Assembly: GCA_964510585.1 (NCBI GenBank)
Contig: CAZECW010000004.1
Location: 3,606 to 67,605, forward strand
Source: an uncultured archaeon
GTDB lineage: Archaea; Asgardarchaeota; Jordiarchaeia; Jordiarchaeales; Jordiarchaeaceae
Direction of reading: 5' to 3'
DNA length: 64,000 nt
Shown piece by piece: positions 3,059 through 63,423 of this stretch. Each line of letters begins with the position of its first letter. Position 1 is the stretch's first letter. The notes beneath the pieces are model-generated. The model was not told where the DNA came from. It searched no databases and saw only the letters and a list, made by a program, of their open reading frames with translations. The translations under genes and the position numbers were made by a program.

Positions 3059-3661
3059 TTTTTAAGTCCTCCTTCCTAGATTGGACTTTCTTCTAAAATT
3101 TTTGTTTCACTTATATAAGATTATCTATTTACAATTGTATAGTACCACGGTAAAAGTCGAAGTGAACCAAAAAAGAGGAAGTATGGATTTATCCAAGGTG
3201 GATTAAGGAAATACCAAAGAAAATTTTATTTATCTTAGAAATTAAGACAAAAAAGATAATTTAACTAATAATATAAGAATAAGTCTTGTTGGCAGGGGAA
3301 TTATATAAATAATTATTATTTGTAATTATTTACATAAATATTAATAACTTAATAAATATTTATATGTACCTAAAACATAACTAATAAGCTTAAACCTTGA
3401 GAAAATTCAAAATTGTATATAGAGCAGAACAATTTTAACCCAATAAAAATTGTCGTAAGAATCCTGCTTGATGGACAAAACCGTTAAAAGAAAAAACTAA
3501 ACGTATAATCTTATAAACTAAGTGGTTTAGGCAAATAATTTTTAAATATAAACAAAAGCACATATAAGTCAATTAAACATCCCCCCCAAAAAAAGACTCT
3601 AAAAAGGTAAGAAGATGGGAAATCCATCCCCAACAAAGGGAAACGCAACGTAGCAAAAACA
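3059..3661. promoter_or_regulatory. AT-rich 600-bp divergent intergenic region, presumably holding promoters (TATA/BRE-like) for the permease (-) and glycoprotein (+) genes.
   Basis: Very AT-rich with many TTATATA/TTTAAATA-like boxes, lying between divergently oriented genes. Confidence 0.4.
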
Positions 3662-6600: not shown

Positions 6601-6664
6601 TATACGCGTCTTTTATCCAGACACTCTAATCAAAATCCACAAAAAACTACTGAGAAAAACATGA
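3662..6664 (+). CDS. Large secreted or surface (S-layer-like) glycoprotein with an N-terminal signal/anchor and a C-terminal TM anchor.
   Basis: 1000 aa. N-terminal hydrophobic segment ASAILIICVILFLTTALIV. About 55 N-x-S/T sequons. C-terminal hydrophobic helix IATIVFWLLIIVLIFI followed by a basic tail KIHKKLLRKT. Confidence 0.6.
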   Translation: MIEMENRKKASAILIICVILFLTTALIVTNTIPLTLPPSQNNSLQLKENGTYATIQINGIYYNVTWFEISNEIINQTIENSVVGTNTYYLNITWNNYVNRSVVMSFNTTNDTIYFNGVQLYIGYNNSPPALRVELRNGTQQNSKWVPSNETILYEEYSIDNFTQEANWATLLNETSILLVPSHTYFLLLRLNETTGDDNSSYYYWRCTPDTGDDSDGVDEGIALALEFEDVSDLNNSAFWADCADDYDCWMIMNFTKLQYTLSLQLPVNWTLSYLMVDVFNSTGSFFYHISNSISGNITGGTGSFNVTLPDGDRMCLAVIKFTEIRPVSWLTVIEGTRNSDGYARTVGNMSEAQRFRLPHDSNNLSIQILIRNTGLKENLTAEIWNATFVESVGSYNLTGKVVDLEVPYWNVTSDYNWLTLNFEGYFSEGDYFLVIHTKDWAGDPSSGPFYDWASHTSFYEIPPSEGYEIWTSENNHSNWNWQDMRDPYGHRYWHCMKVESYNSTDTRNISVWVNGKLVGDNWVWNDTVWIPVQKTQGDNVTFTLTSNMDFEYSLDYDIYYYNYTYDLNNETQFYVNDYPMSNSTQGYFTQIFTSSQLGYNSSTGLVELTFKAWNITSKEWISTSVNATISASMYYIENVSVSSATELNYTYVHSSDAAISLSQESLYIDYSNLNVYAVNTVQLNGTTLHGNWTDNTLTNKITVLKNAFNDTQIGQEILAGDNVTITVNFYSIVNIESPTLPYIGEQVTLNITNVVNTPDYLNVTIIRPNGTIQTLNGTKLNYENWSVNFTPEETGKYIASITTQSTGGNIIRREVANRSVEKYYYVFTVYQLGLGLNKPDIVAEEPLSLGIPYNLQIWVKYLPFNSSETPQVNVNNIIVLLNGSKTINDPVFNSLTGFWELTIIWTSLGNLNITVNVTDDNGRTVVETFIVQVVYPKPPSPIPILSLMTTYAAIGQFDIDTLARIATIVFWLLIIVLIFIRVFYPDTLIKIHKKLLRKT

Positions 6665-6797
6665 ATCCCCTCATTTTTTATTAATTGATAATGATATAAG
6701 AGATTTTGCACCCTCCTAATTTTGAGTCTGGGCCTTAGCCAATGATTCCGTAGTCCCGTACCTATATTTTTGGAGGGTTCAATAGAGAAAAGGAGGA

Positions 6798-15031: not shown

Positions 15032-15324
15032 CCAAAAAACCGAAAAACCAATCCACCTCCAACTATAATCAAAAATTCAAGATTACACCAACTTTCGACA
15101 CAACATCCATGAATAGGAGCTTACCCAGTTTATTCCCAAATCAAAAAACTTTACTTTCAGCAGCTCCTCTCCTCCCAAAGACCCACCTGCTACCTAAAAG
15201 ATAAAACTACTCATCACCCATCATGAAAGTTTTTCATCGTCAAAAAAACACAACCAAAGAATTCGCAAAAGTGAATAAGGAAGGAATGATTTCAAAAACA
15301 AATCGTAATCGAGAATATTGAAAA

Positions 15325-16344: not shown

Positions 16345-17715
16345 ATGGCACAAACACAAAAAGGAGATAAGTACGAAGTCAAAGACCTAAAACTAGCACC
16401 AGGCGGACGAGCAACAATCGAATGGGCAGAATCAAGAATGCCCGTACTTATGCAAATAAGAAAAAGATTCCAAAAAGAAAAACCACTCAAAAACACCATA
16501 GTAGGAGCATGCCTCCACGTAACAAAAGAAACAGCGGTACTTGCAAAAACTCTAAAAGCTGGAGGAGCAGAAGTCTACCTTTGCGCCTCAAATCCCCTAT
16601 CAACACAAGACCATGTAGCCGCGGCACTAGTAGAAGAAGGAATAAACACATTCGCTTGGAAAGGCATGGACTACGAAGGCTACTACCGAGCAATAGCCAA
16701 CGTTATTAAAGGAGAACCGAACATCACACTAGACGACGGCGCCGACCTAGTATCAACCCTAATCAAGCTAAAAAGAGGAGAAACTGGCGAGGAAATCAAA
16801 ATAGTCAAGAAAATTCTCGGAAGCCGTACAGACTGGGCGGACAAAGTATGGGCCGGAGCCGAAGAGACCACAACCGGCGTAATCCGCCTCAGAGCCATGG
16901 CAAAAGATAACGTGCTATTATACCCAATTATAGCTACAAATGATACCCCCACGAAATGGGAAACATAAACACCACCCGTGTTTAAGCCCAAATTTGACAA
17001 CTTGTGGGGAACTGGACAAAGCACCATAGACGGTATACTAAGAGCAACAGCAGACCTCATCGCGGGCAAAATTTTTGTAGTTGCAGGATACGGTCACTGC
17101 GGTAGGGGTGTAGCGCTAAGAGCAAAGGGACTAGGAGCGAGAAGAGTCATCATCTGTGAAATAAATCCCCACCGAGCACTAACAGCCGCCTTAGAGGGCA
17201 TGGAAGTAATGCCCATGAGCGAAGCCGCTGAGGTAGGAGACATTTTCGTAACCGCCACGGGATGCAAGAATGTTATAAATGCTGAACATATGAAAAAGAT
17301 GAAAAACGGGGCAGTAATGTGTAACACAGGCCACTTTAATGTGGAAATAAATATACCTGATTTGGAAAAAATAAGCGTCAGCAAGAGAGAAATAAGACCA
17401 CTAGTCGATGAGTACACACTGGAAGATGGAAGAAAAATCTATCTGCTCGCCCAAGGCAGGCTCGTGAATCTTGCATGTGCCGAAGGACACCCAAGCGAAG
17501 TTATGGACATGAGCTTTTCGGATCAGGCTTTGGCTGTGGAGTGGATTGTTAAGAATAAGGATAAGCTGTCTGGGATGGGTAGTGTGGTTTTGGATATTCC
17601 TGAGGAGATTGATAGGACTGTTGCAGAGTTGAAGTGTAAGGCTATGGGTCTTAGATTGGATGTTTTGACCCCAGAACAGGAAGCGTATTTGTCAGGTTGG
17701 GCTGAAGGAACCTAG
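16345..17715 (+). CDS. ahcY: Adenosylhomocysteinase (S-adenosyl-L-homocysteine hydrolase), interrupted by an in-frame TAA at 16966-16968 inside a 30-nt insertion.
   Basis: Colinear with SAHH throughout: EETTTGV, the NAD-binding [18 protein letters not shown]. Where archaeal enzymes read TKYLFDN, this sequence reads [16 protein letters not shown]. Both halves are in the same frame. Confidence 0.85.
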
Positions 17716-17864
17716 TTCTTACTTTCCTATTTTTATTTTTGTTTGTGTTTTTGGTGGCTTTTTGTGGGTCTTTGGCTTTTTGGTTTTTTGTTATTGCGGA
17801 GTTCAGTCTTTATTGGGGCTTTTTTCTCTTTAAAATTGATAAAGAAGCTCTAGTTGGCTTGCCT

Positions 17865-18191
17865 TTAAAGTAGGAATAGAAGTGTTATTGGGGTAGGGTT
17901 CTGGGTTAGCCATTGGTTTACTAGCTGGTGTAGGTAGATTCCTATGTATTGGGTTACTCCGCCCGAAATTTCGATGATTATGGGGATAATAAGGTGCCAC
18001 TTGGAGGAAACTCCTATTAGGAGGAGGCTTATCATTATTCCTACTAGGTAGGAGAGACGGTGGTGTGAGATGGTGAGCAGTGCTAGGTTCAGGACGAGCA
18101 TACCTACTCCAATCATTAGTAGTATGCCAAAAATTGTGTTGAGCAGATTATAGGTCAGAGGGTTGGTAAGAAGCCAGTAAACATCTATCAT
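17865..18191 (-). CDS. Small hydrophobic membrane protein, hypothetical.
   Basis: 108 aa with 3 predicted TM helices. No recognisable motif. Confidence 0.3.
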   Translation of the reverse strand: MIDVYWLLTNPLTYNLLNTIFGILLMIGVGMLVLNLALLTISHHRLSYLVGIMISLLLIGVSSKWHLIIPIIIEISGGVTQYIGIYLHQLVNQWLTQNPTPITLLFLL

Positions 18192-18384
18192 GGGGATCCT
18201 CTCTATTGTATTTTTGTGAAGGAAAGGATATGAACCCCGCGAAAATTAAAAGGCTTGGTTTCATTTTTTGGGGATGTAGGAAAGTTTTAATTACGTTTTT
18301 ATGATTAGGTTCTGCAGATATTTATTTGGCAGTTGATTGTTGATGTTTGTGGTTGGATGTTGATGATAATTGGAGGAGAATCTG

Positions 18385-19503
18385 ATGGATACTGAAGAAA
18401 AGGTTCAGCGTGTCTTACGTGGCTTGAGTGAAGTTATCACTGTCGAGGATCTACGGAATTTATTTGAGGTAGACAACCACCCTAAGGCTTACATAGGTGT
18501 TGAGCCTTCTGGATAAACCTTTTAGGCTTTCTAGGGTTCCAGAATATTTCATTTGGGCTGGGTGGTTTGGGCTTGGAAGGTTCAGGATTTGATTCTTTGC
18601 GATGTGGATATGCATGTTCTCGAAGCAACTTGGCATGCGAAGATTAACGACAAATTTGGTGGAAACATGAATACCATACACACCTGTGCAAAGTACATTG
18701 AACACTGTTTACAAGCGTTGGGTGTAGATATTAGCAGGGTTCATTTTCCAAAGGCTGAGGATCTTATGGATAGTTTGGATTATTGGGCGACAGTGATAAA
18801 CATTGCTAAAAACACTACGCTGGCCCGCATTAAGAGAGCTATGAGCATAATGGGCCGCAAAGTAGATGATGCGGAATCTGATTATTCAAAAACACTTTAT
18901 CCTTGCATACAGGTAGCTGACATCTTATACGCCGGTTTTAAGCTGTGTCTGGGCGGAACCGACCAGAGAAGAGCTCACATATTGGCGAGGGAGTTGGCTC
19001 CTAAGTTCGGCTTGGATTGGAAGCCGGTAGCTATTCACACACCTCTCCTCATAGGCCTAGAGGGATTATCAAGGATGGAGTTTGAGGATATGAGCGAGGA
19101 TGTTTTAATGGAGGCCAAGATGTCGAAATCCAAACCTCAAACAGCAATTTTTATACATGATAAGCCAGAGGAAATTAGGAGTAAAATTTCTGCTGCTTTT
19201 TGCCCACCGAAACAGGTAGAATTCAATCCAATAATGGAAATAAATAGGCTTCTTCTCTTTTCCAGAGAAGGTTTTACTCTTCATGTAGAACGTGAGGAAA
19301 AATTTGGAGGAGATATAGATTTTGAGAGCTTTGATGAATTGAAATCTGCTTACAGCGCCGGTAATCTTCATCCTCTGGACTTGAAACGGGCTACTGCGGA
19401 GGCCCTCATTGAACTGTTGAAAAATGTTAGGCAACATTTTGAAAAGAATAGTGAAGCCCGTAACCTTTTGGAAACATTAAAAAAGGCTACAGTAACCCGG
19501 TGA
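18385..19503 (+). CDS. tyrS: Tyrosyl-tRNA synthetase (archaeal/eukaryal type), interrupted after the EPSG motif by a 30-nt insertion carrying three in-frame stops (TAA, TAG, TAG).
   Basis: The N-terminus (…AYIGVEPSG) and the downstream ORF (…HLGW…KMSKS…) are in the same frame and colinear with M. jannaschii TyrRS. 10 extra codons sit between EPSG and HLG. Confidence 0.8.
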
Positions 19504-19611
19504 CAAACTTTATCGCGTAGAAGTGTAAGAAAACTTTATTTTGTTCGGCTTTTAACATTGTGTTCAAGAGAGTTTGTCATTTGTTTTCCTTTGCTGATTG
19601 GATGGCTGATT

Positions 19612-20037
19612 ATGCCCTGTAACAATTTGCATGAAGAATTGGAACAGTTTATATCAAAGCTTAGAACAATCTCTGAAAACGGTACCCCCATTATTGTGGA
19701 GGGCTATAAGGATGAGAGAAGCTTAAGAGAACTAGGGGTTCGAGGAATAATTCTTAGATTATCTGGAAGAAAACTCATAGAAGTCGCTGAAGAACTTGCC
19801 AATTATGAGGATTTCCTGATTCTAACCGACTTTGATCGCAAAGGACAAGATATGGCGCTGCGCCTCTTGAAGTATCTAGATCACCACAAGGCAGAGTTAA
19901 CGCTGAGTTTCAGGAGAAGATTTAAAAATTTAACCTCAAAAGTCACCTGCGCCATAGAAGGATTAGCATCCTCATATTTCACTCTTCAAAACCAAAACAA
20001 TAAAAACATGGAATTCAAAGTTGAAAAATTCTTTTAA
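19612..20037 (+). CDS. Small standalone Toprim-domain protein.
   Basis: IIVEGYKDERSL…ILTDFDRKGQ gives a conserved E plus DxD Toprim signature. About 140 aa. Lies immediately upstream of dnaG. Confidence 0.5.
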   Translation: MPCNNLHEELEQFISKLRTISENGTPIIVEGYKDERSLRELGVRGIILRLSGRKLIEVAEELANYEDFLILTDFDRKGQDMALRLLKYLDHHKAELTLSFRRRFKNLTSKVTCAIEGLASSYFTLQNQNNKNMEFKVEKFF

Positions 20038-20196
20038 TGACAAATGGGAGAAAGACATAATTATATCCGAAAGTACGTTAATGTTGAAAATGGTACGTCA
20101 TTATGTTAAAGCTTAATTAAATAAACAATCACTCTTACAAAATTTCAATCATAACACACTTTTATTACCTTATTTCATTATGGAGGTGACGCTTAT

Positions 20197-21435
20197 ATGG
20201 TTAATCGAAATGAGTTTAGCACAACAAAGTACATTATAAAAGCTAAAATAGAAGTAGACGGAGTTGTTGAAAAACCAGACGTTGTGGGAGCAATATTTGG
20301 ACAAACCGAGGGGTTGCTGGGCTCTGAACTTGACCTGCGTGAGCTACAGAGAACTGGGCGAATAGGGAGAATAAAAGTTACAATAGAGTCCCATGGAGGC
20401 AAATCAACGGGAACGGTAATAATTCCCTCAAGCCTTGACAAAGTAGAAACTGCAATGCTAGCAGCTGCTGTGGAATCCGTCGACAGAGTAGGACCATGCA
20501 CTGCTCATGCAACCTTAGAGATAATCGAAGATGTACGAGAGGTTAAAAGAAGAAAGATAGTTCAGAGAGCAGCAGATATTATAAGAAAATGGTCCGAAGA
20601 AGTGTCGCCTGAAAGTCAACAACTCACAGACGAGGTTTTGGATGCAGTTCGAGTAGCTGAAATCACTAAGTACGGTCCTGAAGAACTACCAGCGGGACCA
20701 GCCATAGACAGCTCTGACGATATAATAATAGTTGAAGGGCGGGCGGATGTTCTTAATCTTTTGAGATGCGGCTACAAGAACGTTATAGCGATGGAAGGAA
20801 CAAGTATACCAAAGACTATAATCGATCTTAGCAAGAAAAAAACGATCACGGCCTTTCTAGATGGGGATAGGGGAGGAGACCTGATTTTGAAGGAATTACA
20901 GCAAGTAGCGGATATAGATTATGTGGCCCGCGCCCCTCCAGGAAGGGAAGTTGAAGAACTCACCCAAAAGGAAGTGGTTAAGGCTCTGAGAAACAGACTG
21001 CCTGTAGAGCAATTAGAAGCGGAAGAACCCAAAAAGAAGGAGAAGGAAAAGGAGAAAAGAAAAGAGCAGGAAAAAGAAGAGAAAAAGGAAAGAGGGTGGG
21101 AAGAAAAAAAACCCAAAAGGACTGAAATTCCTCCCAAAATTAAGCTTCCAGAACAGATTCTAAACTACCTGCCTAACATAAAAGCCTCAAATAAGGCTAT
21201 ACTTTTAGGGAAAAACTTGGAATTAATGGAGGAAATGGATGTATCTTCGTTGGCAGAGCGCCTGAAAGAAGTGGGCTCGGTTAGAGTTATCATTTTTGAT
21301 GGAATTATTACTCAGAGGTTGGTAGACCTAGCTCAGGATAAAGGGGTGGAGTATATTTTAGGGGTAAGACAAGAGAATGTTACAAAGAAACCCTTAAATC
21401 TAAAGATTGTAGAGTTCAACGAGGTAATAACTTAA
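20197..21435 (+). CDS. dnaG: Archaeal DnaG-type primase (exosome-associated), with a lysine/glutamate-rich low-complexity insert.
   Basis: N-terminal archaeal-DnaG signature [32 protein letters not shown]. Toprim [14 protein letters not shown]…[27 protein letters not shown] insert near 21000-21130. Confidence 0.85.
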
Positions 21436-21474
21436 AAATTTGGACCCAGTTAGAAACTGTAGGGTGAGAAATTT

Positions 21475-22596
21475 TTGAAGGAAAAAAGTGAAAAGATTCG
21501 ACATATTTCTACTTCCGTTCGTGAAGAGCCTTTAAAAAAGAAGGAACGAATGCAATATCTTTCCGTGGTGGAGCTGCAGCCATCAGGTTTTCCTTTCCGG
21601 CTTGTGGGAGAGGAGCCCCCTATAGCCTTATTGACCGACGACGCTGAACTGTTCCAAGCGTATGCTAGGGAACAGTGGGCTGGTATTTGTGTTAAGAAGG
21701 GGGATTACCTATTTGACCAACTAGTTTTCCCAGATTTCGCCTTTAAAGTTTCCGACGCTCAGCCAGCTCGGGGAAGAATAGGTTTTTCCACACGTTTCAT
21801 TCTTAAGAGGAAACCCTTCAGTGAGGAGAAGAGACCGTCAATTCGTTTTTCAGATGTTATAGGTCAAAACGAAGCCAAAAGCAAGTGTCTGATAATCAAA
21901 AAATACTTGGAAAATCCGAAAGCTTTTGGAGACTGGGCGCCGAGAAACATTCTTTTCTATGGGCCTCCAGGAACGGGGAAAACAATGCTGGCTCAAGCAC
22001 TGGCTAACGAAACAAATGCACCCTTCTATTTAATTAAATCCACAGATTTGATAGGAGTTAATGTTGGTGACGCTTCAAGAAGAATACACTCTGTTTTCAA
22101 AATAGCATCAGACAATGCGCCTAGCGTCATATACCTCGACGAAATTGACGCTATAGGGTTAGACCGCAGCTTCCAAAACATAAGAGGGGACGTATCAGAG
22201 GTAGTTAATGCTTTGTTGGGGGAGCTGGATGGATTAACCGCGAATTTTGGCGTAGTATGTATAGGAGCTACAAATAATCCAGTCATGTTAGATAAGGGGA
22301 TCAGAAGCAGATTCGAAGAAGAAATCGAGTTCAAACTTCCCAACGCTGAAGAACGGGAACAAATCCTTAGACTCTACATATCAAAAATGCCTTTGCCGGT
22401 AAAGGCAGACATTAAAAAGATAGTTAGAAACACTGAAGGCTTCTCTGGTAGAGACCTTAAAGATAAAATCCTTAAAGCAGCGCTCCACAAAGCCATACTT
22501 CAAGAGGAAAAATGTGTAACACAAGACATAATAGACGCCATACTTAAACAACTCAATGACAAGTCGCCAAAAGAAAAACCCAAAATGTTCACTTAA
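21475..22596 (+). CDS. AAA+ ATPase with an N-terminal CDC48/VAT-N-like domain and a single AAA module.
   Basis: Walker A GPPGTGKT, Walker B IYLDEIDA, and the second region of homology. The N-terminal about 110 aa resemble a double-psi barrel N-domain. Confidence 0.75.
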   Translation: MKEKSEKIRHISTSVREEPLKKKERMQYLSVVELQPSGFPFRLVGEEPPIALLTDDAELFQAYAREQWAGICVKKGDYLFDQLVFPDFAFKVSDAQPARGRIGFSTRFILKRKPFSEEKRPSIRFSDVIGQNEAKSKCLIIKKYLENPKAFGDWAPRNILFYGPPGTGKTMLAQALANETNAPFYLIKSTDLIGVNVGDASRRIHSVFKIASDNAPSVIYLDEIDAIGLDRSFQNIRGDVSEVVNALLGELDGLTANFGVVCIGATNNPVMLDKGIRSRFEEEIEFKLPNAEEREQILRLYISKMPLPVKADIKKIVRNTEGFSGRDLKDKILKAALHKAILQEEKCVTQDIIDAILKQLNDKSPKEKPKMFT

Positions 22597-22652
22597 ATAT
22601 TTAAATTGTTAAACCCCAAAAGGTCTATAAACTGTTTTCTACAGGTTAACAG

Positions 22653-23204
22653 GTGCAAGCCTTGAAAATCATCGGCCTTGTGGGAATGCCGGGCAGTGGA
22701 AAAACATTAGCAGTAAATGTAGCAAAAAGCTTGGGTATACCTGTAATATCAATGGGAGACATGGTTCGGGAGGAGGTAAAATCAAGGGGCCTAGAAGAAA
22801 CACCTGAAAACGTAGGCTATGTATCTAAGGATTTGAGGGAAAAGGAAGGCCCCCAAGCTGTTGCCCAAAGGACACTCGCCAAAATTAAGAAGGAGAAGGC
22901 CCCCGTGATTCTTGTTGAGGGAATTAGAAGCCTCCAGGAGATAGAGTTATTCAAGACATTCACTTCCGACTTCACACTAATCGCTATACATTCATCGCCC
23001 AAAACCCGTTACCGACGTTTAATTGAAAGAGGGCGGTCGGATGATGCCAAGGATATCAGAATCTTTCAGGAAAGAGACCTCAGAGAAATAAATTATGGAA
23101 TAGGATCGGCAATCGCTCTTGCAGATTACATGATAGTAAACGAGGGCAGCGAATCAGAACTGATGAGAAAAGTTCAAACAATTCTAGAGGAGATAATGCA
23201 ATGA
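22653..23204 (+). CDS. P-loop nucleotide kinase, UPF0200 family (archaeal dephospho-CoA-kinase-like).
   Basis: GMPGSGKT P-loop, about 180 aa. Forms the conserved UPF0200/UPF0201 gene pair. Confidence 0.55.
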   Translation: MQALKIIGLVGMPGSGKTLAVNVAKSLGIPVISMGDMVREEVKSRGLEETPENVGYVSKDLREKEGPQAVAQRTLAKIKKEKAPVILVEGIRSLQEIELFKTFTSDFTLIAIHSSPKTRYRRLIERGRSDDAKDIRIFQERDLREINYGIGSAIALADYMIVNEGSESELMRKVQTILEEIMQ

Positions 23205-23632
23205 TAGAATTGGAAATCGAGACCCCAGTATACCCCACTGAGAGTAGAGACAAGGTGGAAAAAGCTCTAAAATCCGTCGTGGACACAACCTACACTTTTT
23301 CAGAAGGTGTTGGAGTGAAGTTTCTTCACGGCAAAGCTCAAGGTCTGGAGGGACTTGTGAAACTTCATCAACGCCTAAGGGAGCAACTCATAGTTGAATC
23401 GGCAAGAAAAATTTTGGTAAGAAACATAGTTGGAAATACAGTAACATTCTACCTACACAAACAGGCAGCCTTTATGGGAAAAATACACTTCTGCCAACCA
23501 GAATCGGAATCCCCGATGGGGGCCATAAAAATAACAATAACAAGCAACAACATAGGGGAACTTGTGGACTGGCTTGCGCCAAAAACTGTTGAGGGTAAGC
23601 CTTTAGAGAGGCCTCCACCAACAGACTGTTAA
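23201..23632 (+). CDS. UPF0201-family protein, the conserved partner of UPF0200.
   Basis: 143 aa. Start overlaps the upstream stop (ATGA). Family assignment rests on size, position and general similarity. Confidence 0.45.
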   Translation: MIELEIETPVYPTESRDKVEKALKSVVDTTYTFSEGVGVKFLHGKAQGLEGLVKLHQRLREQLIVESARKILVRNIVGNTVTFYLHKQAAFMGKIHFCQPESESPMGAIKITITSNNIGELVDWLAPKTVEGKPLERPPPTDC

Positions 23633-23649
23633 AAAGGGAAGAAATAAAA

Positions 23650-24456
23650 GTGGTAGGCATAAAACTAGGCGTCTCAACTATGCCCTTTATAAAAAGTCAC
23701 TTCGACGAAATTGTGAAAACAATTGAAAACATTCCAGAAAATTTAGAATTGGACTGTTGTGAAATCATTGAGGAGGGGTTTCATTTTTTAAACTCAGAAC
23801 GAATAAAAATGCTAAAGAATGCCGCTTCAACATCCAAAATAAGTTATACAGTCCACGCTCCCTTCGCAGGGATCAATTTGGCTTCGCCAGAGCCTCTCCA
23901 ATCGGTTCTGCTAGATTTCATGGATAAGTCACTTGAAAGGAGCTACACCTTAGAGGCTGAAATATTTATAGTGCATCCGGGGCTGCTTTCACCCTTCACG
24001 ATTCACTTCCCCGAATTAGCTTGGCATAGCCTAAAAAACGCAATAAGGCACCTATGTAAGCTTTCAGACGCTTTGGGCTCTCCTAAAATTGCAGTTGAAA
24101 ATATGGCGCCACCCTATCCTTTTCTGGTTTCTCAAAGTCAAGATGTAGAGAGGCTGTTTCAAGAACTTGAAGATTGTGAATTTGGTTTGTGCTTGGACAT
24201 TGGACACGCTCAAAAATCAGGGGGAGTGAAAACCTTTCTTAAGCATGTGGAACAGTACGTAACACATGTGCATGCTCATGATAACATTGGGGATAAGGAT
24301 GCTCACCTGCAAGTTGGAAAGGGAACCGTTGATTGGAAATACGTTGTCAGCACGCTTAAAAAACTAAATTTTAGAGGATACATTGTTGTTGAGAATACTA
24401 CCTTAGACGATGCTTACGATAGTATACGCTTTTTAAAAACAATTATTAACCGCTAG
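23650..24456 (+). CDS. Xylose-isomerase-like TIM-barrel protein, AP endonuclease family 2 (endonuclease IV-like).
   Basis: Motifs are spaced as in Endo IV: HAPFAGINLASPEP, IVHPG, VENMA, GLCLDIGHA. Confidence 0.55.
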   Translation: MVGIKLGVSTMPFIKSHFDEIVKTIENIPENLELDCCEIIEEGFHFLNSERIKMLKNAASTSKISYTVHAPFAGINLASPEPLQSVLLDFMDKSLERSYTLEAEIFIVHPGLLSPFTIHFPELAWHSLKNAIRHLCKLSDALGSPKIAVENMAPPYPFLVSQSQDVERLFQELEDCEFGLCLDIGHAQKSGGVKTFLKHVEQYVTHVHAHDNIGDKDAHLQVGKGTVDWKYVVSTLKKLNFRGYIVVENTTLDDAYDSIRFLKTIINR

Positions 24457-24468
24457 GTTTTCTCGGTA

Positions 24469-25371
24469 CTAGTCCAAAACTATCTCCATAAGGTCTTCTC
24501 CCAAGATGCTGTTGTGAAAAACTTTTTTAGCTTGTTCCAAAAGTTCGTTGGAGTTTTTGTATCTTGAACTTATATGGGTGAGAATCAATTTTTGCACCCC
24601 CGCTTCTTTAGCCACTTTTGCGGCTTGGGTGGTTGTGGAGTGCTTTGTCTCTACTGCCTTTTCTTCTAAGTCTTCTCCATAAGTGCTATCGTGTATTAGG
24701 ATAGTGGCGCCTCTACTTATTCGTTTAACTGAGTCGCAGGGGGGAGTATCTCCTGAATAAACGATTTTTCTTCCAGGTCTTGGAGGATCCACCACTTGGT
24801 TTGGCTCTATCCTTCTCCCATCTGGGAGTGTAACTTTTTCACCATATTGTAATTTTTTCCATAGGGGGCCCATAGGTATTCCTAAAGCTCTAGCTTTTTC
24901 AGGATGGAATTTACCTGGCCTATCCTTTTCGATAAAGGCAAAGGCAAAAGAATTGTTGTGCTCTGTTTTGGCACATTCAACCGTGTAGAGGCTCGTCTCA
25001 CATACTACCCCCTCAGTAACCTCTTTAATATGCACGTTAAATGTGAGAGTAAATTCCACTGTCGTCTTTATGGCTTTAACGAAATCAGCAATGCCTTTTG
25101 GACCAAATATGTGGAGGGGTTTCTCCCGATTCATGAGCGAAAGTGTTTGCAATATTCCGGGGATACCCATTATATGGTCTCCGTGAAGGTGGGTGATAAA
25201 AATTTTGTTAATTCTGCTCACACTTAAATTTGCCTTCTCCATCTGTCTTTGTGTTCCCTCCGCACAGTCGAACAAAATAATTTCTCTATTTATTTTTACG
25301 GCGATTGCCGGAAGGTTTCTATCAGCAGTAGGCATTCCGCCAGAAGTTCCCAGCAATATGATTTTCAGCAA
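24469..25371 (-). CDS. rnz: Ribonuclease Z (tRNA 3'-processing endonuclease, metallo-beta-lactamase fold).
   Basis: LGTSGGMP N-terminus. HxHxDH motif ITHLHGDHIMG. About 300 aa. Confidence 0.85.
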   Translation of the reverse strand: MLKIILLGTSGGMPTADRNLPAIAVKINREIILFDCAEGTQRQMEKANLSVSRINKIFITHLHGDHIMGIPGILQTLSLMNREKPLHIFGPKGIADFVKAIKTTVEFTLTFNVHIKEVTEGVVCETSLYTVECAKTEHNNSFAFAFIEKDRPGKFHPEKARALGIPMGPLWKKLQYGEKVTLPDGRRIEPNQVVDPPRPGRKIVYSGDTPPCDSVKRISRGATILIHDSTYGEDLEEKAVETKHSTTTQAAKVAKEAGVQKLILTHISSRYKNSNELLEQAKKVFHNSILGEDLMEIVLD

Positions 25372-25374
25372 CTT

Positions 25375-26406
25375 TCATTTCCTCAGCACTATAATTTGGC
25401 GTGTTAAACTCTTGTGTACCGGTATCAAATGTTTTTCTATTATTCGAAAACTTGTTCCCAAAATAGATTCGTCAACATTGACTGTTAAGGGGGTGCCCAT
25501 ACAGATGTATCCTGCTGAACTAGATAGTTTATCTAATTCCTGTAAGAAGAATTCAATTAGTTTTTCGGGGCGGACGCCTTTGGTGGAGGCCGATCCTCCG
25601 TAGGGTGGATCCGTTGCTATGCTGTCAAATTGGTTGAGGGGGAGGTGTTTGGCGTCTGAAAGTATAATGTTCCAGTTGACTATGTTGAAGTGTAGGAGAT
25701 TCCTTTTTGCACCTTTAACCATTTTTTTGTCTATGTCGGAACCTATGGTTTTGCAACCCATGAGGCCCGCCTCAATTAGAAGACCTCCTGCTCCACAGAA
25801 TGGATCCAAGAAGACTCCTTTGGGTCGAGCTCGAGAGAGATTAACCATAGCTCTGGCGAGATGGGGATTCATGGAACTGGGAATAAAAAAAGGCCTGAAT
25901 TTTGCCTTCCTGAGACCTAAAGCTTTCCTTTCGGATTCCCTGACACTTATCCCAAACAGGAATATGTCTTCCGTTAAAACGCCATAAAATAACTTGTCAG
26001 GATTTTCAAGATTGGCCCTTGCCCCCACCCTCCTATGAATGAGGGCGCCAATTTCTTTTTCTAAAAGAAGTGAGCTCACTTCCGGTGAATAATTTTTTAT
26101 GCGTTTCACTCTAACGGCAAAGGTTTCTTTGGCTGAGATGTGTTTCTGAAAATCTACGTCTCGAAGTGAAGCCATTATCTGGTTGAAGTCTGCTTCACAT
26201 TTAAGCAGTGAAATGCAGCATCTATGAACCATTGCGGCACGCTCAGCTATTCTTTGGCAACTCTCCTCCTCTGCTTTCAAAAGTAGTACTTGGTCATATT
26301 TTTCTGCTTTGTAGTCCATGTTCAGGCTTTCAAGGATTGCTAAGCACTCAGCAGCAGCTATTGTTTTGGTTTCTCCAGATAGAATGTAAAAATGGTTTTT
26401 AATCAC
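25375..26406 (-). CDS. THUMP-domain tRNA (guanine-N2)-methyltransferase (Trm11/TrmG10-like).
   Basis: N-terminal ferredoxin-like/THUMP region. SAM-binding motif DPFCGAGGLLIEAG. Catalytic DPPYG. Confidence 0.7.
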   Translation of the reverse strand: MIKNHFYILSGETKTIAAAECLAILESLNMDYKAEKYDQVLLLKAEEESCQRIAERAAMVHRCCISLLKCEADFNQIMASLRDVDFQKHISAKETFAVRVKRIKNYSPEVSSLLLEKEIGALIHRRVGARANLENPDKLFYGVLTEDIFLFGISVRESERKALGLRKAKFRPFFIPSSMNPHLARAMVNLSRARPKGVFLDPFCGAGGLLIEAGLMGCKTIGSDIDKKMVKGAKRNLLHFNIVNWNIILSDAKHLPLNQFDSIATDPPYGGSASTKGVRPEKLIEFFLQELDKLSSSAGYICMGTPLTVNVDESILGTSFRIIEKHLIPVHKSLTRQIIVLRK

Positions 26407-27290
26407 TCTTTTAACGCCTCAGCGATAATAGGAGCTACGGACACTAAGCTAACATCGCTAGGAACTGTGTCGGTTGCAATTATTTCAGTTACTCCTGCAT
26501 TAAGAATCCTAAACCGGGAGTCCCCCACCAAGATGGCGTGAGTGCATGCGGCATAAATTTTAGCGGCGCCTTGATTTTTGGCAATTTCGATGGCTTTAAC
26601 CATGGTTCCGCCAGTACTGATAATGTCATCCACTACGACCACATCGCGGTTGATGACATCAATTTCTCTACTCTTGGTTTCGATTTCACCTGTGTGTTTA
26701 TCTCTAAACTTGCTGAGAACCACATATTCAGCGCCTAAAAATTCTGCAAGACTTTTAGCCCTATTCATAGCTCCTTCGTCTGGGGAGATAATGACAGGTT
26801 TCGTCAGTTTATACTTGTTTAAGTATTCGCCCAGAAGGGGAATAGCGCTTAAGTCTCTTACGGGAATACTGAGATAATCAAAAAGTCTCTTGTTATGAAT
26901 ATCGACTGTTAGTATTTCGTCGGCTCCCGCATTCTGAATTATTTTACAAATTATTTTTCCACTCACCGCTTCGCCGGGAAGAAATCTTTTGTCTTGGCGG
27001 GCGTAAGCAAAATAGGGAATAACTGCGGTAACCTTTGATACACCCAATTCTTTTAGAGTTTCAATTATGAAACAGAGCTCAACTATACCTTGATCAGGGT
27101 TCGGGGGTATCGTGGATTGAACCACAATAGCGTGGCGGTTTTTTGGCTCCTCTTTAATTCTAATGTATTTCTCGCCGTCTGGGAAGGTCTTAAACTCAAT
27201 GGGAATAGCTCCACATTTTAAACATCTAGAGATACGCAGACCCAAGAGTTGCGAACTAGGACCAGGCACTACTACTTTTTCGAGCAACAT
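26403..27290 (-). CDS. prs: Ribose-phosphate pyrophosphokinase (PRPP synthetase), copy 1.
   Basis: PRPP-binding loop VVVVDDIISTGGTM, typical N-terminal domain, 295 aa. Confidence 0.9.
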   Translation of the reverse strand: MLLEKVVVPGPSSQLLGLRISRCLKCGAIPIEFKTFPDGEKYIRIKEEPKNRHAIVVQSTIPPNPDQGIVELCFIIETLKELGVSKVTAVIPYFAYARQDKRFLPGEAVSGKIICKIIQNAGADEILTVDIHNKRLFDYLSIPVRDLSAIPLLGEYLNKYKLTKPVIISPDEGAMNRAKSLAEFLGAEYVVLSKFRDKHTGEIETKSREIDVINRDVVVVDDIISTGGTMVKAIEIAKNQGAAKIYAACTHAILVGDSRFRILNAGVTEIIATDTVPSDVSLVSVAPIIAEALKE

Positions 27291-27495
27291 TCATCAACTC
27301 TTCTCTAAACACATCTACTCAATTTTCTAAAAAGCTCCGTTTAACAGGGGATAACTCACAAATATTTAAAGGCTGTTTATCTTTATTCCAGAGATATTAA
27401 AAATATTTTAGGTCAAATAAGCTCAGAAAAATATGTATATAATATCAAATTTTGAACGGCGGCAAATCTGGTTCCAATATCTTAAAAGTTAGAAA

Positions 27496-28554
27496 GTGTA
27501 TATGTATCTAGAAAAAGTTCCAATTTTGGTGAAACTTTTGCTAAAGGAAACAATGATTTACGAGAAGCTTGATAATAACATGGTAAAATGTGGGATTTGC
27601 CCCCACCGCTGTCTAATTAAACCCGGAAAGAGGGGAAAATGTAAAACAAGAGAAAACATAGATGGAGTTCTCTACTCCCTTGTTTATTCCTCAATATCTG
27701 CTATGGCTAATGACCCTATTGAGAAAAAACCTCTGTTCCACTTTTATCCAGGAAGCACCGCATTTTCTATATCAACGGTGGGATGTACTTTTCATTGCCA
27801 CCACTGCCAAAACTGGAGCATCTCTCAGGCAGAGCCCGAATCTGGCTTAACTAGAGAGTTTTCACCAGAAGAAATTGTCTCAGCAGCTAAGAAAAGTGGT
27901 AGCCGTTCTATCGCATACACCTATAATGAGCCCTTCGTTTTCTACGAATTCGTCTACGATACTGCAAAGATTGCACATAAAAACAACATAAAAAATATTC
28001 TAGTTACAAACGGGTATGCTACACCTGAGGCCATAGAAAAAATAGCTCCCCTAATAGATGCAGCAAACATTGATGTGAAAGCGATGAGCGAGGAATTTTA
28101 CAGAGAGATATGTGGGGCGCGGCTTCAACCAGTATTGGACGCCGTCCTTCTTATGAAGGAGAAGGGCATTCATATAGAAATTACTTATCTTATAATCCCT
28201 CAGAAAAATGATAGCGTAGATGAGATAAAGAAATTTGTAGAATGGGTGAAGGGCAATTTAGGACTGGATGTACCTATCCATTTCTCCAGGTTTTATCCCC
28301 ATTACAAAATGAAAAATCTTAGCCCCACCCCAGTTCAAACAGTTATCAAAGCTAGAGAAATTGGGCAAAAAGCAGGACTGCACTACGTCTACTGTGGAAA
28401 TATACCGGGAGAGGGAGAGAACACGTATTGCTATAATTGTAACCAATTAATAGTTGGACGATGGGGATACGTAATAGAGGAGTACAAACTTGCCAAAGGC
28501 AATACGTGTCCAAACTGCGGAGCGAAGATAAACATAATTGGAGAATGGGAATAG
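27496..28554 (+). CDS. Radical SAM enzyme, AmmeMemoRadiSam/PflX-like, with a C-terminal zinc ribbon.
   Basis: KCGICPHRC…DPIEKKPLFHFYPGS…GCTFHCHHCQNWSIS gives the CxxxCxxC cluster. C-terminal CYNCN…CPNCG. Confidence 0.75.
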   Translation: MYMYLEKVPILVKLLLKETMIYEKLDNNMVKCGICPHRCLIKPGKRGKCKTRENIDGVLYSLVYSSISAMANDPIEKKPLFHFYPGSTAFSISTVGCTFHCHHCQNWSISQAEPESGLTREFSPEEIVSAAKKSGSRSIAYTYNEPFVFYEFVYDTAKIAHKNNIKNILVTNGYATPEAIEKIAPLIDAANIDVKAMSEEFYREICGARLQPVLDAVLLMKEKGIHIEITYLIIPQKNDSVDEIKKFVEWVKGNLGLDVPIHFSRFYPHYKMKNLSPTPVQTVIKAREIGQKAGLHYVYCGNIPGEGENTYCYNCNQLIVGRWGYVIEEYKLAKGNTCPNCGAKINIIGEWE

Positions 28555-28568
28555 TTCCCCCCAAATGT

Positions 28569-29718
28569 TTAGGATACTGGGCGCCAGATAATTCCTAGTT
28601 CATCCGCAGTTTTATATGCTTCCTCCATTTCATCGCTAGTCACTCTTCTACATATATCTGCATATTCCTTCCTTCTTGGTACCTCGTGTGTTGGGTGATA
28701 CTGTTCCATTATGTTAACTAAAGCTTTAGGACAATTTTTAGCCACCCATTCAAGCACTGGTTTGGTGCAACATTCAACGTGTCCCGGTAAAACTAGGTGC
28801 CTTATTATCATACCAGATGTTCCAGGTTCCACGGTCTCATCATAGGCCATCTTGTGATTTCTTGAAACGACTTCCCAGTAGTTAGAAACTTTACTCAACC
28901 TCTCCGCGCATTGATTATTTCCATATTTAAAGTCGGGGAGCCAGAAATCCATAACGTCCAGTAAAAGCTTCATACATTCTTTGGAACAGTACATGTTAGA
29001 ATTCCATAGTTGCACAATGTTTGTTTTAGTTTCCCTGATGCCTTTTAAAATGTTGTAGGTGTTTGGAGTTGGATCTCCACCCACATAATTTATGTTTCTT
29101 GCACCTTCCCTCTTTAGATCTCTTGAGATTCGTGCAAGGCTCTCACCCGAAGTTTCTATACCGTTTTTTGGATTTGTGGAAATGTCATAGTTCTGACAAA
29201 ACACGCATTTAAAAGTGCAACTGGAGAAGAAGAATGCACCGCAAGAGCCTTAACTCTTAAGCGTTTGTGCCTGAAGGAACTAGAGGGGCCTCTTCCCCTG
29301 TATGTATGAATGCTGAGGATACGTAAGACTCGCTACCCAGTTTACAAAATCCTTTTTCACCCTCCAGTCTATTAGCTCCACACCGTCTTTCACAGAAATG
29401 ACACTGTGATAGAATCCTTCTTGCTAGTTCCACCTTAACATCCAAATAAGAAATCTTTGGCGAATCCATGTTTCCCAGTTCCAGTTCACCTGCATCAATC
29501 CGCCTCAAGACACTTCTAAAAACACCACTTATTCTATCATGTTCATCCCAAAGCTTGCCCAGCTCCGCATCTAGCTCCACATCTACACCTACTTTTAAAG
29601 CTATCATAAACTTAGCATAAAGCCTATCATTGAATACCTCATAGTACCTCCAAAGCCTCTCACGAACTATACCGTTATCCCAAACACGGTAAGCATCTGG
29701 GCGAATTAGTTTCCACAT
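28569..29718 (-). CDS. PflX-like radical SAM protein, split into two ORFs by a roughly 13-nt stop-containing insertion just upstream of the CxxxCxxC motif.
   Basis: The upstream ORF ends …HTGEEAPLVPSGTNA*. The downstream frame reads GSCGAFFFSSCTFKCVFCQNYDIS (radical-SAM cluster). The frames differ by +1. The stop in each frame lies beyond that of the other, so the two cannot be joined by a single indel. Confidence 0.6.
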
Positions 29719-39356: not shown

Positions 39357-39557
39357 GGTCCCGCAGGCCGGACTTCCAAATATAGTGTATGGCACACTAT
39401 AAACTTTGAACCAGCGACGTTGGGGCTGAGTACTATATGCACCCAGTTATCCCGGTGTCTGAGTGCCTACTGGGGTAAGCCACACTTAACGAGTGCAGCT
39501 CTACAGCCGGGCACTCTAGCCAGTCTGAGTTACTGCGGGTAAAGTTACTGCGGGACC
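39357..39557 (+). ncRNA. Candidate structured ncRNA of about 201 nt with a perfect 10-bp terminal helix. Family unassigned.
   Basis: GGTCCCGCAG (39357-39366) pairs with CTGCGGGACC (39548-39557). Internal hairpins ATAGTGT-atggc-ACACTAT and GAGTGCC…GGCACTC. An 11-nt direct repeat GTTACTGCGGG occurs twice. It is a GC-rich island in a 480-bp intergenic gap. Confidence 0.4.
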
Positions 39558-57816: not shown

Positions 57817-58560
57817 TTAAATTATATCCAAAATTTCTGAAATATTATTCACCGTATAGTCCGGCTTCTCATCATCACAAGTTGGCTCCCTCTCAGCGTG
57901 TAAATCCTTCCTCACACGTATAGTAATCGCCCCAATGGATTTCGCCCAAGCAAAATCATTCCTGGGATCATCACCAACAACGAAAATTCTCTTACCAGTA
58001 ACGGGTTGACCCAAATCCTCCTCCAAACACTGAATAAGCCTCTCAAGAAACTCGGGAGCTGGCTTACATACACCTAAACGCTCCGAAGAAAACAAGAAGC
58101 GATAGTGCTTCCCGGGCTCCAGCCCGAAAAGTTTCATCTTCAACTCAGTTTCCTCGTCCTCATTATTGGTGGCAATCACAACAATCGACTTCCTATTCAG
58201 CATCTCAAGCGTTTTATGAGTATCCGGATACGGCCTTGCACGAGCAACAAAATGCTTCCAATAAAAATCGTGAATCTTGTCAAGAAACTCTGAAGCAAAC
58301 CTAATCCCATTATTCTGCTGCACCTTCTCAAGAAATAACCTCAACCTAATCCTCTTATTATGCCTCCTCGGCTTAAGAGGATACAATTCATAATGCTCCT
58401 TCTTAGCCTGCCTGTAAAACTGCTCCATCTTTTCCAAGCTAACCCTCGAACCACAACTCCTACTAGCCTCCTGACAAGTCAACTCAAAAACCTTCCTAAA
58501 CGCCTCTTCCTCAGGAATAAGCGACAAACCCAAAGTACCATCCATATCAAAAATAACCAC
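57817..58560 (-). CDS. HAD-superfamily hydrolase.
   Basis: FDMDGTLG motif I with a GTG start at 58560, VVGDDPRNDFAWAKSIGA motif IV. The long upstream extension of the ORF is an artefact of the stop-free A/C tract. Confidence 0.7.
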   Translation of the reverse strand: MVIFDMDGTLGLSLIPEEEAFRKVFELTCQEASRSCGSRVSLEKMEQFYRQAKKEHYELYPLKPRRHNKRIRLRLFLEKVQQNNGIRFASEFLDKIHDFYWKHFVARARPYPDTHKTLEMLNRKSIVVIATNNEDEETELKMKLFGLEPGKHYRFLFSSERLGVCKPAPEFLERLIQCLEEDLGQPVTGKRIFVVGDDPRNDFAWAKSIGAITIRVRKDLHAEREPTCDDEKPDYTVNNISEILDII

Positions 58561-58599
58561 AGTATCCCCGTCCGACTGAAAAACGCCAGTTCCCTTCTT

Positions 58600-59700: not shown

Positions 59701-59848
59701 TAAAGCCTTGCCTCAGAAAAAGGGAAAAAGATATAGGAAGGGAAGAAAAAATAAGTTTTATACCTCCCCTGGGGGCAAAGGAAGGGAAGACACAGCCAAC
59801 CATGCAACGAAGCAAATAAATAAAAAAGTTGAAGAAGAGGAAACAAAA

Positions 59849-63313: not shown

Positions 63314-63423
63314 GGTCTCCCGGCTCTTGGCGAAGGGCTATGCATTACCCATAACTTTTAAGGGTGTTGGAGGGGTATCTGAGTGTGCATATAATGTTCA
63401 CAATTAAGCTTAGGTGAAAAGCG

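Follow-up and report, generated by a model that had tools for sequence, protein, structure and literature searches.

Until now, introns of the bulge-helix-bulge (BHB) kind have been confirmed in one archaeal protein-coding gene only, cbf5, which is the sole case cited up to 2025. The cbf5 pre-mRNA intron of Crenarchaeota (Desulfurococcales and Sulfolobales; Watanabe 2002, Yokobori 2009) has a relaxed BHB that is cut by the archaeal splicing endonuclease, EndA (PMC2738675). In Asgard archaea EndA is a broad-specificity (alpha-beta)2 enzyme with an L1 specificity loop, reported for Odin-, Loki-, Thor- and Heimdallarchaeota, Jordarchaeia not being among them, and relaxed forms of the motif are known substrates of this enzyme (PMC5829648). 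Between 92 and 95% of the tRNA genes of Freyarchaeia and Atabeyarchaeia contain introns, often at non-canonical sites, and tRNAs with multiple introns occur there as well (PMC11291895). A literature search for BHB introns in Asgard protein-coding genes found no report.

The DNA analysed here is a 64-kb stretch of a Jordarchaeia genome (the window), in which short inserts interrupt ahcY, tyrS and a radical-SAM gene. All three are very probably relaxed BHB-type introns. With cbf5 they share the short length, the relaxed BHB-like motif and lineage-specific gain and loss (cbf5 is cut by a hetero-oligomeric endonuclease), but they belong to another phylum (Asgard/Jordarchaeia) and to other genes, affect 3 of the ~55 genes of the window at once, with up to 3 introns per gene in a relative, range from 27 to 191 nt in size, and their splicing is a prediction. 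The archaeal tRNA BHB introns are similar in the 4-bp helix, the 3-nt bulge and the cut positions, as well as in the intron-rich lineage and the signs of duplication (relative L094); here, however, the host is an mRNA without a tRNA body to aid recognition, and excision must preserve the frame and precede or outcompete translation. In the IRE1/RtcB splicing of eukaryotic HAC1/XBP1 mRNA the spliceosome likewise plays no part: a structure-specific endonuclease together with an RtcB-type ligase takes out a small intron, of 26 nt in XBP1, and the reading frame is altered. This splicing differs in the endonuclease, in the twin stem-loops with a consensus loop, and in being regulatory and stress-induced, whereas the introns described here, located in housekeeping genes, appear constitutive. 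In T4 gene 60 and the byp elements of Magnusiomyces mitochondria, finally, conserved genes likewise carry short, structured inserts with stop codons that do not show up in the protein; these systems act on the ribosome and depend on take-off and landing codons that match, neither of which holds here.

Interrupted genes and insert boundaries

Each of the three genes is broken by a short insert with a stop codon or a frame shift. The two ahcY ORFs (16345-16968 and 16978-17715) share a reading frame, and compared with solved AhcY structures (PDB alignment) the gene has exactly 10 extra residues with a TAA inside. The tyrS ORFs (18370-18516 and 18553-19503) are also in one frame, with exactly 10 extra residues relative to solved TyrRS (PDB alignment) and three stop codons inside them, while the radical-SAM ORFs on the minus strand (29718-29257 and 29204-28569) lie in frames that differ by +1, the break coming directly ahead of the CxxxCxxC motif. 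The claim of the initial annotation that three genes are disrupted alike is real, the split ORFs being present in the sequence and shared by relatives and independent assemblies. Of the sizes it gave (30, 30 and ~13 nt) the first two were right, and the radical-SAM insert was found to measure 31 nt (29234-29264).

The features are as follows; C1 is a 4-nt segment close to where the upstream exon ends, and C2 a 4-nt segment near the 3' end of the insert.

16345..16962, plus strand: ahcY (S-adenosylhomocysteine hydrolase) exon 1, ending in ACG AAA TGG GAA (TKWE); the last 6 nt are C1 TGGG (16957-16960) and the first two bulge bases AA (Pfam AdoHcyase, PDB alignment)
16963..16992, plus strand: ahcY predicted intron, 30 nt, in-frame TAA; A, hairpin CATAAACAC(CACCC)GTGTTTAAG, C2 CCCA (16987-16990), AA
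16993..17715, plus strand: ahcY exon 2, through the stop codon (Pfam AdoHcyase_NAD)
18370..18514, plus strand: tyrS exon 1, starting at TTG 18370 or, more likely, at ATG 18385 and ending in CCT TCT GGA T; C1 CTGG (18509-18512), then AT (PDB TyrRS alignment)
18515..18544, plus strand: tyrS predicted intron, 30 nt; A, hairpin AACCTTTTAGGCTTTCTAGGGTT, C2 CCAG (18539-18542), AA
18545..19503, plus strand: tyrS exon 2, TA TTT CAT TTG GGC to the stop; its first two bases finish the split Leu codon T|TA (Pfam tRNA-synt_1b)
29265..29718, minus strand: exon 1 of the radical-SAM gene (PflX-like putative pyruvate formate-lyase activating enzyme family), ending in TCA GGC ACA A; C1 GCAC (29270-29267), then AA (full-length homologues align across)
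29234..29264, minus strand: radical-SAM predicted intron, 31 nt; A, hairpin CGC(TT)AAGAG(TTAAGG)CTCTTGCG, C2 GTGC (29239-29236), AT
28569..29233, minus strand: radical-SAM exon 2, TC TTC TTC TCC AGT TGC to the stop; its first two bases finish the split Ile codon A|TC (Pfam Radical_SAM, Fer4_12)

Reading through tyrS from exon 1 meets three in-frame stops in or across the intron: a TAA whose T is the exon base 18514, and two TAG codons. The true inserts are not the obvious runs of ten stop-containing codons (18515-18544 vs 18514-18543 in tyrS, 16963-16992 vs 16957-16986 in ahcY). Naive excision of these runs was tried and rejected: the frame is restored, but the junctions read Ile-Phe and Pro-Lys, which occur in 0 homologues. 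A BHB in ahcY with AAG as the 3' bulge was rejected by hand, as it would take out 19 nt and break the frame.

The remaining ~55 genes of the window are intact, and no further split genes were found among its ~60 ORFs. Adjacent or overlapping ORF pairs at the RIO1/KH protein, DUF424/aIF2-beta, two ArsR-family genes and the transposase region are separate genes.

Proposed splice register and shared architecture

The register of splicing was tested on six introns: the three of the window and three lineage-specific ahcY inserts of relatives (31, 56 and 191 nt). Splice sites were set independently, from the protein consensus or from intron-less alleles. With both 4-mers placed 2 nt ahead of their splice sites, C1 and C2 pair completely (4/4) in 6/6 introns, and all other registers score 0-2; by our own arithmetic the chance of this is ~(6/16)^4 per intron and ~1e-9 overall, alternative boundaries included. 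Five of the helices are entirely Watson-Crick and one contains a G.U pair. All six have a common design: the 5' exon pairs at its end with the end of the insert to form the 4-bp helix, three nucleotides bulge out after C1, and the insert folds internally into a hairpin stacked on C2. Both junctions fall 2 nt past the helix, where the archaeal BHB splicing endonuclease makes its cuts. That the cut comes after the second bulge base is a rule taken from the canonical 37/38 tRNA intron.

The folds of minimum free energy (MFE) show the bulge-helix geometry, and that of the radical-SAM insert matches the intron structure exactly. Only ~1-3 of the 6 introns have their 3' site in a proper 3-nt bulge that is closed by an outer helix between the exons. 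This helix is canonical in the 191-nt intron of L094 (ACC/GGT), approximate in ahcY introns 1 and 2 (CGAA/UUUG and CCGA/UCGG in MFE folds), and absent in radical SAM and tyrS, the latter having only a distant GCCU/GGGC pairing. Since these two genes lack it, the motif is relaxed rather than canonical, and in these models it fits the hBH/BHL class, not the strict hBHBh' form.

Helix cells are paired in 96-97% of cases, vs 12-60% when the partners are slid. Covariation is weak, with one double compensatory change (A:U to G:C in ahcY pair 2) and most pairs invariant; its score was reached by 54 of 500 shuffles, there being little variation to work from. At pair 2 of the ahcY hairpin, A:A is replaced by A:U or G:C in relatives, and loops and lengths vary freely. 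Looking for a positive control of the cut position, ARAGORN detected zero tRNAs in the window or in 13 Jordarchaeia loci, and zero intron-containing tRNAs in 32 outgroup loci. The splice rule (4-bp helix, cut 2 nt past it, on both strands) is concrete and usable genome-wide. A loose structure-only scan gave 119 matches in the window and an ORF-joining scan 2235 across loci, the former far too permissive for finding new introns and the latter also far too permissive; a strict ungapped-helix criterion drops known cases (radical SAM and the first ahcY intron).

In the proposed mechanism, C1 and C2 would pair in the pre-mRNA, leaving the 3-nt bulge after C1 and the intron-internal hairpin directly on C2. 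EndA would cut each strand 2 nt 3' of the helix, and an RtcB-type ligase would join the exons to give intact AhcY, TyrRS and radical-SAM frames. Both the enzymes and removal at the RNA level are what we infer; neither an EndA nor an RtcB gene was found in the 64-kb window. Excision from the RNA by another machinery, such as an IRE1-like endonuclease or a small self-cleaving element, might account for the frequent lack of a canonical bulge and outer helix at the 3' sites. It is unlikely, because the geometry is exactly that of an EndA substrate, relaxed forms are already known for the Asgard-type (alpha-beta)2 enzyme (PMC5829648), and there were no Rfam ribozyme matches in the window.

Predicted spliced products

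Excision by this register restores the residues of intact homologues at all three sites (EPSG-L-FH, TK-WE-FDN and PSG-TIF-F). The ahcY junction then reads exactly as in the closest intact homologues, and Trp-Glu is present in 17 of the nearest 20. In tyrS the product reads EPSG-L-FHLGW, with Leu-Phe at this place in 83 of 109 intact homologues and Ile-Phe in 0, and in radical SAM it reads PLVPSG-TIF-FSSCTFKCVFCQN, with TIF in 108 of 115 homologues and TFF in 0. An intron-less ahcY allele (L098) is collinear with the spliced ahcY, and the 31-nt intron of L012 and the 56-nt and 191-nt introns of L094 also match intron-less alleles to the exact nucleotide.

These junctions bear on programmed translational bypassing of the T4 gene 60 or mitochondrial byp type, in which the ribosome would take off before the insert and land after it. 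The inserts are short and hairpin-bearing, the tyrS of the window has a stop right after GGA, and the flanking codons are partly alike (GGA/AGA, AAA/AAG, ACA/GCA). Nevertheless, bypassing is very unlikely. Take-off and landing codons are identical at 0 of 6 sites (GGA/AGA, AAA/AAG or GTG in L012, ACA/GCA, CAC/TCA), and the stop is not conserved, GGA being followed by CAA in three relatives (L011, L096 and L097). A hop by whole codons would give Ile in TyrRS and Phe in radical SAM, where at least 90% of intact homologues have Leu and Ile, respectively, and would give AhcY either PK or no residues in place of WE. The symmetric 2-nt register plays no part in hopping, and an insert of 191 nt far exceeds known hops. 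What decides the matter is that two junction codons (Leu T|TA and Ile A|TC) are split between the exons, as only splicing could yield. The initial annotation had offered mRNA introns and bypassing side by side: the former is strongly supported by the register (a BHB check it had proposed, giving the 4-bp helix, the 3-nt bulge and the 2-nt offset in 6/6), the junction residues, the intron-less alleles and the lengths, while the latter fails on its unmatched codons, the unconserved stop and the split codons.

Conservation, gain and loss among relatives

The interruptions are kept in every Jordarchaeia/Freyarchaeota relative, down to ~75% nucleotide identity. Intron lengths in the clade are 27-31 nt in ahcY, 30 or 31 nt in tyrS, and 31 or 34 nt in radical SAM (34 in L011); not being held to multiples of three, the inserts are probably not translated. 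The earlier argument from clean multiples of three was wrong: the multiple of three is a coincidence of this strain, relatives having 27, 28, 29 and 31 nt. The tyrS intron occurs as eight sequence variants (30 or 31 nt) in 14 clade loci, with C1 and C2 invariant. In all relatives exon 1 of tyrS is called as a separate ORF of 43-46 aa, and the tyrS relatives of 79-100% identity are all N-truncated in gene calls; no intact TyrRS copy above 57% identity was found. A metagenome scan gained only two clade loci, the other 77 matches being distant.

It might be supposed that the genes are truly split, each encoding two polypeptides that assemble, or that the insert is excised from the DNA, and gene callers do assign start codons to the downstream parts. 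Both are highly implausible. The called downstream starts vary among relatives and fall past the histidine of the TyrRS HIGH motif, and the breaks separate catalytic residues (TK|FDN) and interrupt a beta-strand/HIGH motif. Metagenome assemblies of many samples contain only insert-bearing DNA, and the conserved 4-bp helix and register are explained by neither.

The flanking exons of the proposed introns are under strong purifying selection and the genes are therefore functional: pN 0.015-0.096 vs pS 0.26-0.61 in ahcY exon 1 and 0.004-0.09 vs 0.29-0.75 in exon 2; dN/dS 0.07-0.15 and 0.06-0.10 in tyrS exons 1 and 2; pN 0.014-0.12 vs pS 0.15-0.86 in radical-SAM exon 1 and 0.006-0.073 vs 0.16-0.85 in exon 2. 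Pseudogenes, or the assembly and sequencing errors of a low-quality or chimeric MAG which the initial annotation had allowed for, could produce stops and a frameshift in conserved genes, and the relative L004 contains a 37-nt insert that is unrelated and shows no BHB features, but this is scarcely credible given that the split AhcY ORF is identical on 9 contigs of independent samples, that same-site inserts persist across saturated synonymous divergence with dN/dS of 0.01-0.15 on both sides, that the clade lacks an intact copy of the essential TyrRS, and that the other ~55 genes are intact.

With the three further ahcY inserts (31 nt in L012, 56 and 191 nt in L094), four different insertion sites are known in this gene across lineages, and one relative has up to 3 introns in it. 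Judging from the sequences, introns are evidently gained and lost between close lineages. Introns 3 and 4 of L094 have termini in common, so at least two introns resemble copies of a single element, suggesting that the introns are mobile. Transposition of tRNA introns occurs in Thermoproteales. What is new here is that a 64-kb piece of an Asgard genome has tRNA-type introns in three housekeeping genes unrelated to one another; new too are the additional sites in relatives (up to three per gene), the presence/absence polymorphism and the hint of intron duplication.

All public genomes of the clade list essential genes like tyrS as truncated fragments, and gene calling and completeness estimates for it are thus systematically wrong. 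It is conceivable, at somewhat less than even likelihood, that Jordarchaeia, and perhaps other intron-rich Asgards, carry dynamic, mobile BHB introns in protein genes genome-wide, in tens to hundreds per genome, a figure extrapolated from 3 in ~55 genes. If so, many essential mRNAs would need splicing ahead of translation, and in an archaeal relative of eukaryotes these two processes would be in conflict, just as has been suggested for eukaryote origins, where such a conflict may have driven transcription and translation apart. The introns of the window also raise the question of what keeps an archaeon whose transcription and translation are presumably coupled from translating its unspliced mRNAs, and bear on ideas about the spread of introns and the origin of the nucleus.

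The 37-nt insert of L004 is located in an AP_endonuc_2 gene, where it breaks the splice rule and does not fold.

Split genes and the conservation of their interruptions

The ORF map of the window, combined with Pfam, revealed three conserved genes that are each present as two pieces:

16345-16968 and 16978-17715, plus strand: ahcY (S-adenosylhomocysteine hydrolase), pieces in the same frame
18370-18516 and 18553-19503, plus strand: tyrS (tyrosyl-tRNA synthetase, TyrRS), pieces in the same frame
29718-29257 and 29204-28569, minus strand: PflX-like radical-SAM gene, downstream piece +1-shifted

When the read-through products were aligned to solved structures, AhcY showed an exact 10-residue surplus (WET*TPPVFK) between TK and FDN, and TyrRS one of the same length (*TF*AF*GSR) between EPSG and HLG. 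The ORF map, Pfam and, for ahcY and tyrS, the structure alignments bear out the claim of the initial annotation that short stop-containing inserts interrupt these genes; its size of 30 nt stands for ahcY and tyrS, the radical-SAM insert is 31 nt rather than about 13 nt, and the coordinates were corrected. No further split gene was found by Pfam among about 60 other ORFs of the window. The Asgard affiliation, until then assumed, was confirmed by the adjoining genes of VPS28-like (11-403, ESCRT-I) and EAP30/Vps36-like (421-1155, ESCRT-II) proteins.

Pseudogene decay or assembly errors were rejected as the origin of the inserts because these recur in independent contigs, are conserved in the clade and are flanked by exons under selection. 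Nine contigs from independent samples encode exactly this 207-residue AhcY fragment, and the three that were retrieved are 100% identical to the window across 6 kb. In a search with the repaired TyrRS, all relatives of 79-100% identity, some of them labelled Candidatus Freyarchaeota, were N-terminally truncated (~313 aa), full-length matches occurring only at <=57% identity; clade members of the radical-SAM protein are likewise fragments, and intact proteins begin at 66% identity. At the DNA level, comparison with three Jordarchaeia/Freyarchaeota genomes (L004-L006, ~92% nucleotide identity) and with more distant clade loci (L010-L015 and L094-L097, ~75%) showed tyrS to be interrupted at one and the same position in all of them, and ahcY and the radical-SAM gene likewise, each at its own position, in all loci covering them. 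Non-synonymous differences in the exons flanking each insert amount to 0.004-0.15 per site, versus 0.14-0.86 for synonymous ones, which are often saturated, indicating strong purifying selection on both sides of each insert.

The initial annotation also regarded two of the three inserts as multiples of three, and this does not hold across the clade, where lengths of 28, 29 and 31 nt also occur at these two sites:

ahcY site 1 intron: 30, 29, 28, 29 and 27 nt
tyrS intron: 30 or 31 nt
radical-SAM intron: 31 or 34 nt

The termini are invariant and the loops differ in both sequence and length. The inserts are, on this comparative evidence, apparently removed rather than translated.

A common architecture and a proposed splice rule

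The three inserts share one design. Close to its 3' end, the upstream exon has a 4-nt strand (C1), which is followed by a 3-nt bulge and an intron-internal hairpin; the 3' arm of this hairpin runs directly into the 4-nt strand C2, which is complementary to C1, and the 3' junction lies 2 nt past C2. Minimum free energy folds yield the same bulge-helix-hairpin design. [quoted passage not shown]

16963-16992, plus strand: ahcY intron, TGGG AA/A CATAAACAC(CACCC)GTGTTTAAG CCCA AA/T; predicted spliced junction ACGAAATGGGAA/TTTGACAACTTG
18515-18544, plus strand: tyrS intron, CTGG AT/A AACCTTTTAGG..CTAGGGTT CCAG AA/T; predicted spliced junction CCTTCTGGAT/TATTTCATTTGG
29234-29264, minus strand: radical-SAM intron (31 nt), GCAC AA/A CGC(TT)AAGAG(TTAAGG)CTCTTGCG GTGC AT/T; predicted spliced junction TTCAGGCACAA/TCTTCTTCTCCAG

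One of the peptides predicted under the splice model reads ...EEAPLVPSGTIFFSSCTFK. As modelled, the design has the geometry of the archaeal BHB substrate, in which a 4-bp helix lies between 3-nt bulges (PMC7714728).

The residues predicted at the junctions agree with those of intact homologues. Leu-Phe, as predicted for TyrRS, occurs in 83 of 109 intact homologues and Ile-Phe, the product expected from a ribosome hop or from removal of the ten stop-containing codons as they stand, in none. TKWEFDN is found in 17 of the 20 closest intact AhcY homologues (TKPKFDN, 0/20), and the TIF of the rule-derived radical-SAM product, PLVPSG-TIF-FSSC, in 108 of 115 homologues (TFF, 0/115). The Leu codon of TyrRS (T/TA) and the Ile codon of the radical-SAM protein (A/TC) are each built from two exons. 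In addition, ahcY is uninterrupted in a Jordarchaeales genome (L098), reading ACC AAG TGG GAA TTT GAC AAC, and this intron-less allele is collinear with the splice junction predicted for the window.

Relatives carry three additional ahcY introns that are absent from the window:

L011, L012 and L015, at GH/PS: 31 nt, GGCC AC/A ... GGCU CA/C
L094 2967-3022, at EETTTG/: 56 nt, CCGG AA/U ... CCGG AA/U
L094 3640-3830, at GHPS/E: 191 nt, CCAG UG/A ... CUGG UA/A

For all three, the boundary predicted by the rule coincides with that given by the intron-less orthologue. With splice sites pre-set by junction residues and intron-less alleles, full C1:C2 pairing was obtained for 6/6 introns only when both 4-mers were placed 2 nt upstream of the splice site, and for 0-2/6 in every other register. 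We calculate that 4/4 pairing (Watson-Crick or G.U) would arise by chance in a fixed register with a probability of ~0.02 per intron, and of ~1e-9 for six introns even when alternative equivalent boundaries are allowed for.

Formal support from covariation is thin. Most helix pairs are invariant. Changes of a single partner that create or remove a G.U pair occur several times, and a double compensatory change occurs once, from A:U to G:C in the second pair of the ahcY intron hairpin, where the window has an A:A mismatch. The observed score was matched by shuffles in 54/500 and 170/500 trials. On folding, a proper bulge closed by an outer exon-exon helix encloses the 3' splice site, clearly so for the 191-nt intron and roughly so for ahcY introns 1 and 2; no outer exon-exon helix closing the 3' bulge was seen in the tyrS and radical-SAM introns. 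This places the motif in the relaxed (hBH/BHL) class, whose members are substrates of (alpha-beta)2 and epsilon2 endonucleases with a specificity loop; the (alpha-beta)2 type with the loop has been reported for Asgard archaea (PMC5829648). The 64-kb window itself encodes no splicing endonuclease gene, and a structure-only scan for introns was non-specific.

Probable excision from mRNA and competing explanations

The inserts are very probably BHB-type introns removed from mRNA. Excision at the RNA level by a nuclease other than the archaeal splicing endonuclease EndA is a possible but unnecessary assumption. Expression as split proteins, or excision at the DNA level, would leave the conserved helix and register unaccounted for, and the called downstream starts differ among relatives. 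Of the two mechanisms proposed in the initial annotation, mini-introns are upheld by the junction residues, intron-less alleles and register, and translational bypassing is rejected: take-off and landing codons do not match at any site, the stop that follows GGA is missing in some relatives (L011, L096 and L097 read GGA CAA), split Leu and Ile codons are beyond what a hop can make, and the 191-nt member far exceeds known hops.

In the literature searched, archaeal pre-mRNA splicing has been confirmed only for cbf5 of Crenarchaeota, whose relaxed BHB is a substrate of EndA (PMC2738675), and cbf5 was still cited as the sole case in 2020 and 2025 (PMC7714728, PMC12397907). Complete genomes of Freyarchaeia and Atabeyarchaeia reportedly contain introns, often non-canonical and multiple, in 92-95% of tRNA genes, and their report does not mention introns in protein genes (PMC11291895). 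Our literature search found no report of BHB introns in Asgard protein-coding genes. The predicted introns of the window would be of the same kind as that of cbf5, and are unusual in number, host genes and lineage. No tRNA gene was detected by ARAGORN in the 64-kb window or in 13 Jordarchaeia loci (L004-L006, L010-L015, L094-L097), and no Rfam family reached gathering score in the window; the absence of tRNA genes is compatible with their being broken by multiple non-canonical introns (cf. Freyarchaeia), or with there simply being none in these regions.

Possible intron mobility and other observations

Since the two L094-specific ahcY introns have common termini (CCAYATGTTWAAT ... GRGAGTTTTTAYTA..CATRTGG), the sequences suggest that the 56-nt intron is an internal-deletion derivative of the 191-nt one, that both belong to a single mobile family and that the introns spread. 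The longer of the two forms an extended rod on folding (-65.9 kcal/mol), and the compared loci yielded no additional copy of this family.

An insertion of another appearance, 37 nt long and AT-rich, breaks the frame of an AP_endonuc_2/TIM-barrel gene in L004 (MAG QZM_A3, 15169-15205), at a position matching ~23731 of the window (gene 23650-24456). It has no BHB register, folds worse than shuffled sequence and is missing in every other relative; possible origins are a mistake in assembly, genuine decay into a pseudogene or an element of a different type. In L010 (contig shared with L016) the syntenic ahcY is reduced to a C-terminal remnant of ~68 codons (6420-6686), near a DDE transposase gene (3607-4722), and a functional ahcY, if any, must be located elsewhere.

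The window also contains a DDE transposase gene (62336-63313, minus strand), in a stretch (62001-64000) with a G+C content of 0.515 versus ~0.41 elsewhere, probably marking either an insertion sequence or the border of foreign DNA. Strand composition is extreme at 58001-62000 (GC skew -0.36, then +0.34; AT skew +0.42), and a gene at 59708-61570 encodes an FG-GAP/beta-propeller repeat protein with internal near-repeats (e.g. 60033-60069 and 60695-60726). RNase Z-like and THUMP-methyltransferase genes lie 3 nt apart at 25371-25375, and in L010 (16941-17023) and L013 (8264-8346) a conserved 83-nt spacer occupies this gap. At 39375-39402 on the minus strand, in the intergenic region between 39187 and 39666, lies a 9-bp hairpin without mismatches (TATAGTGTG cca CACACTATA), bordered by CAAA and TTTG, which possibly acts as a terminator or binds a protein.
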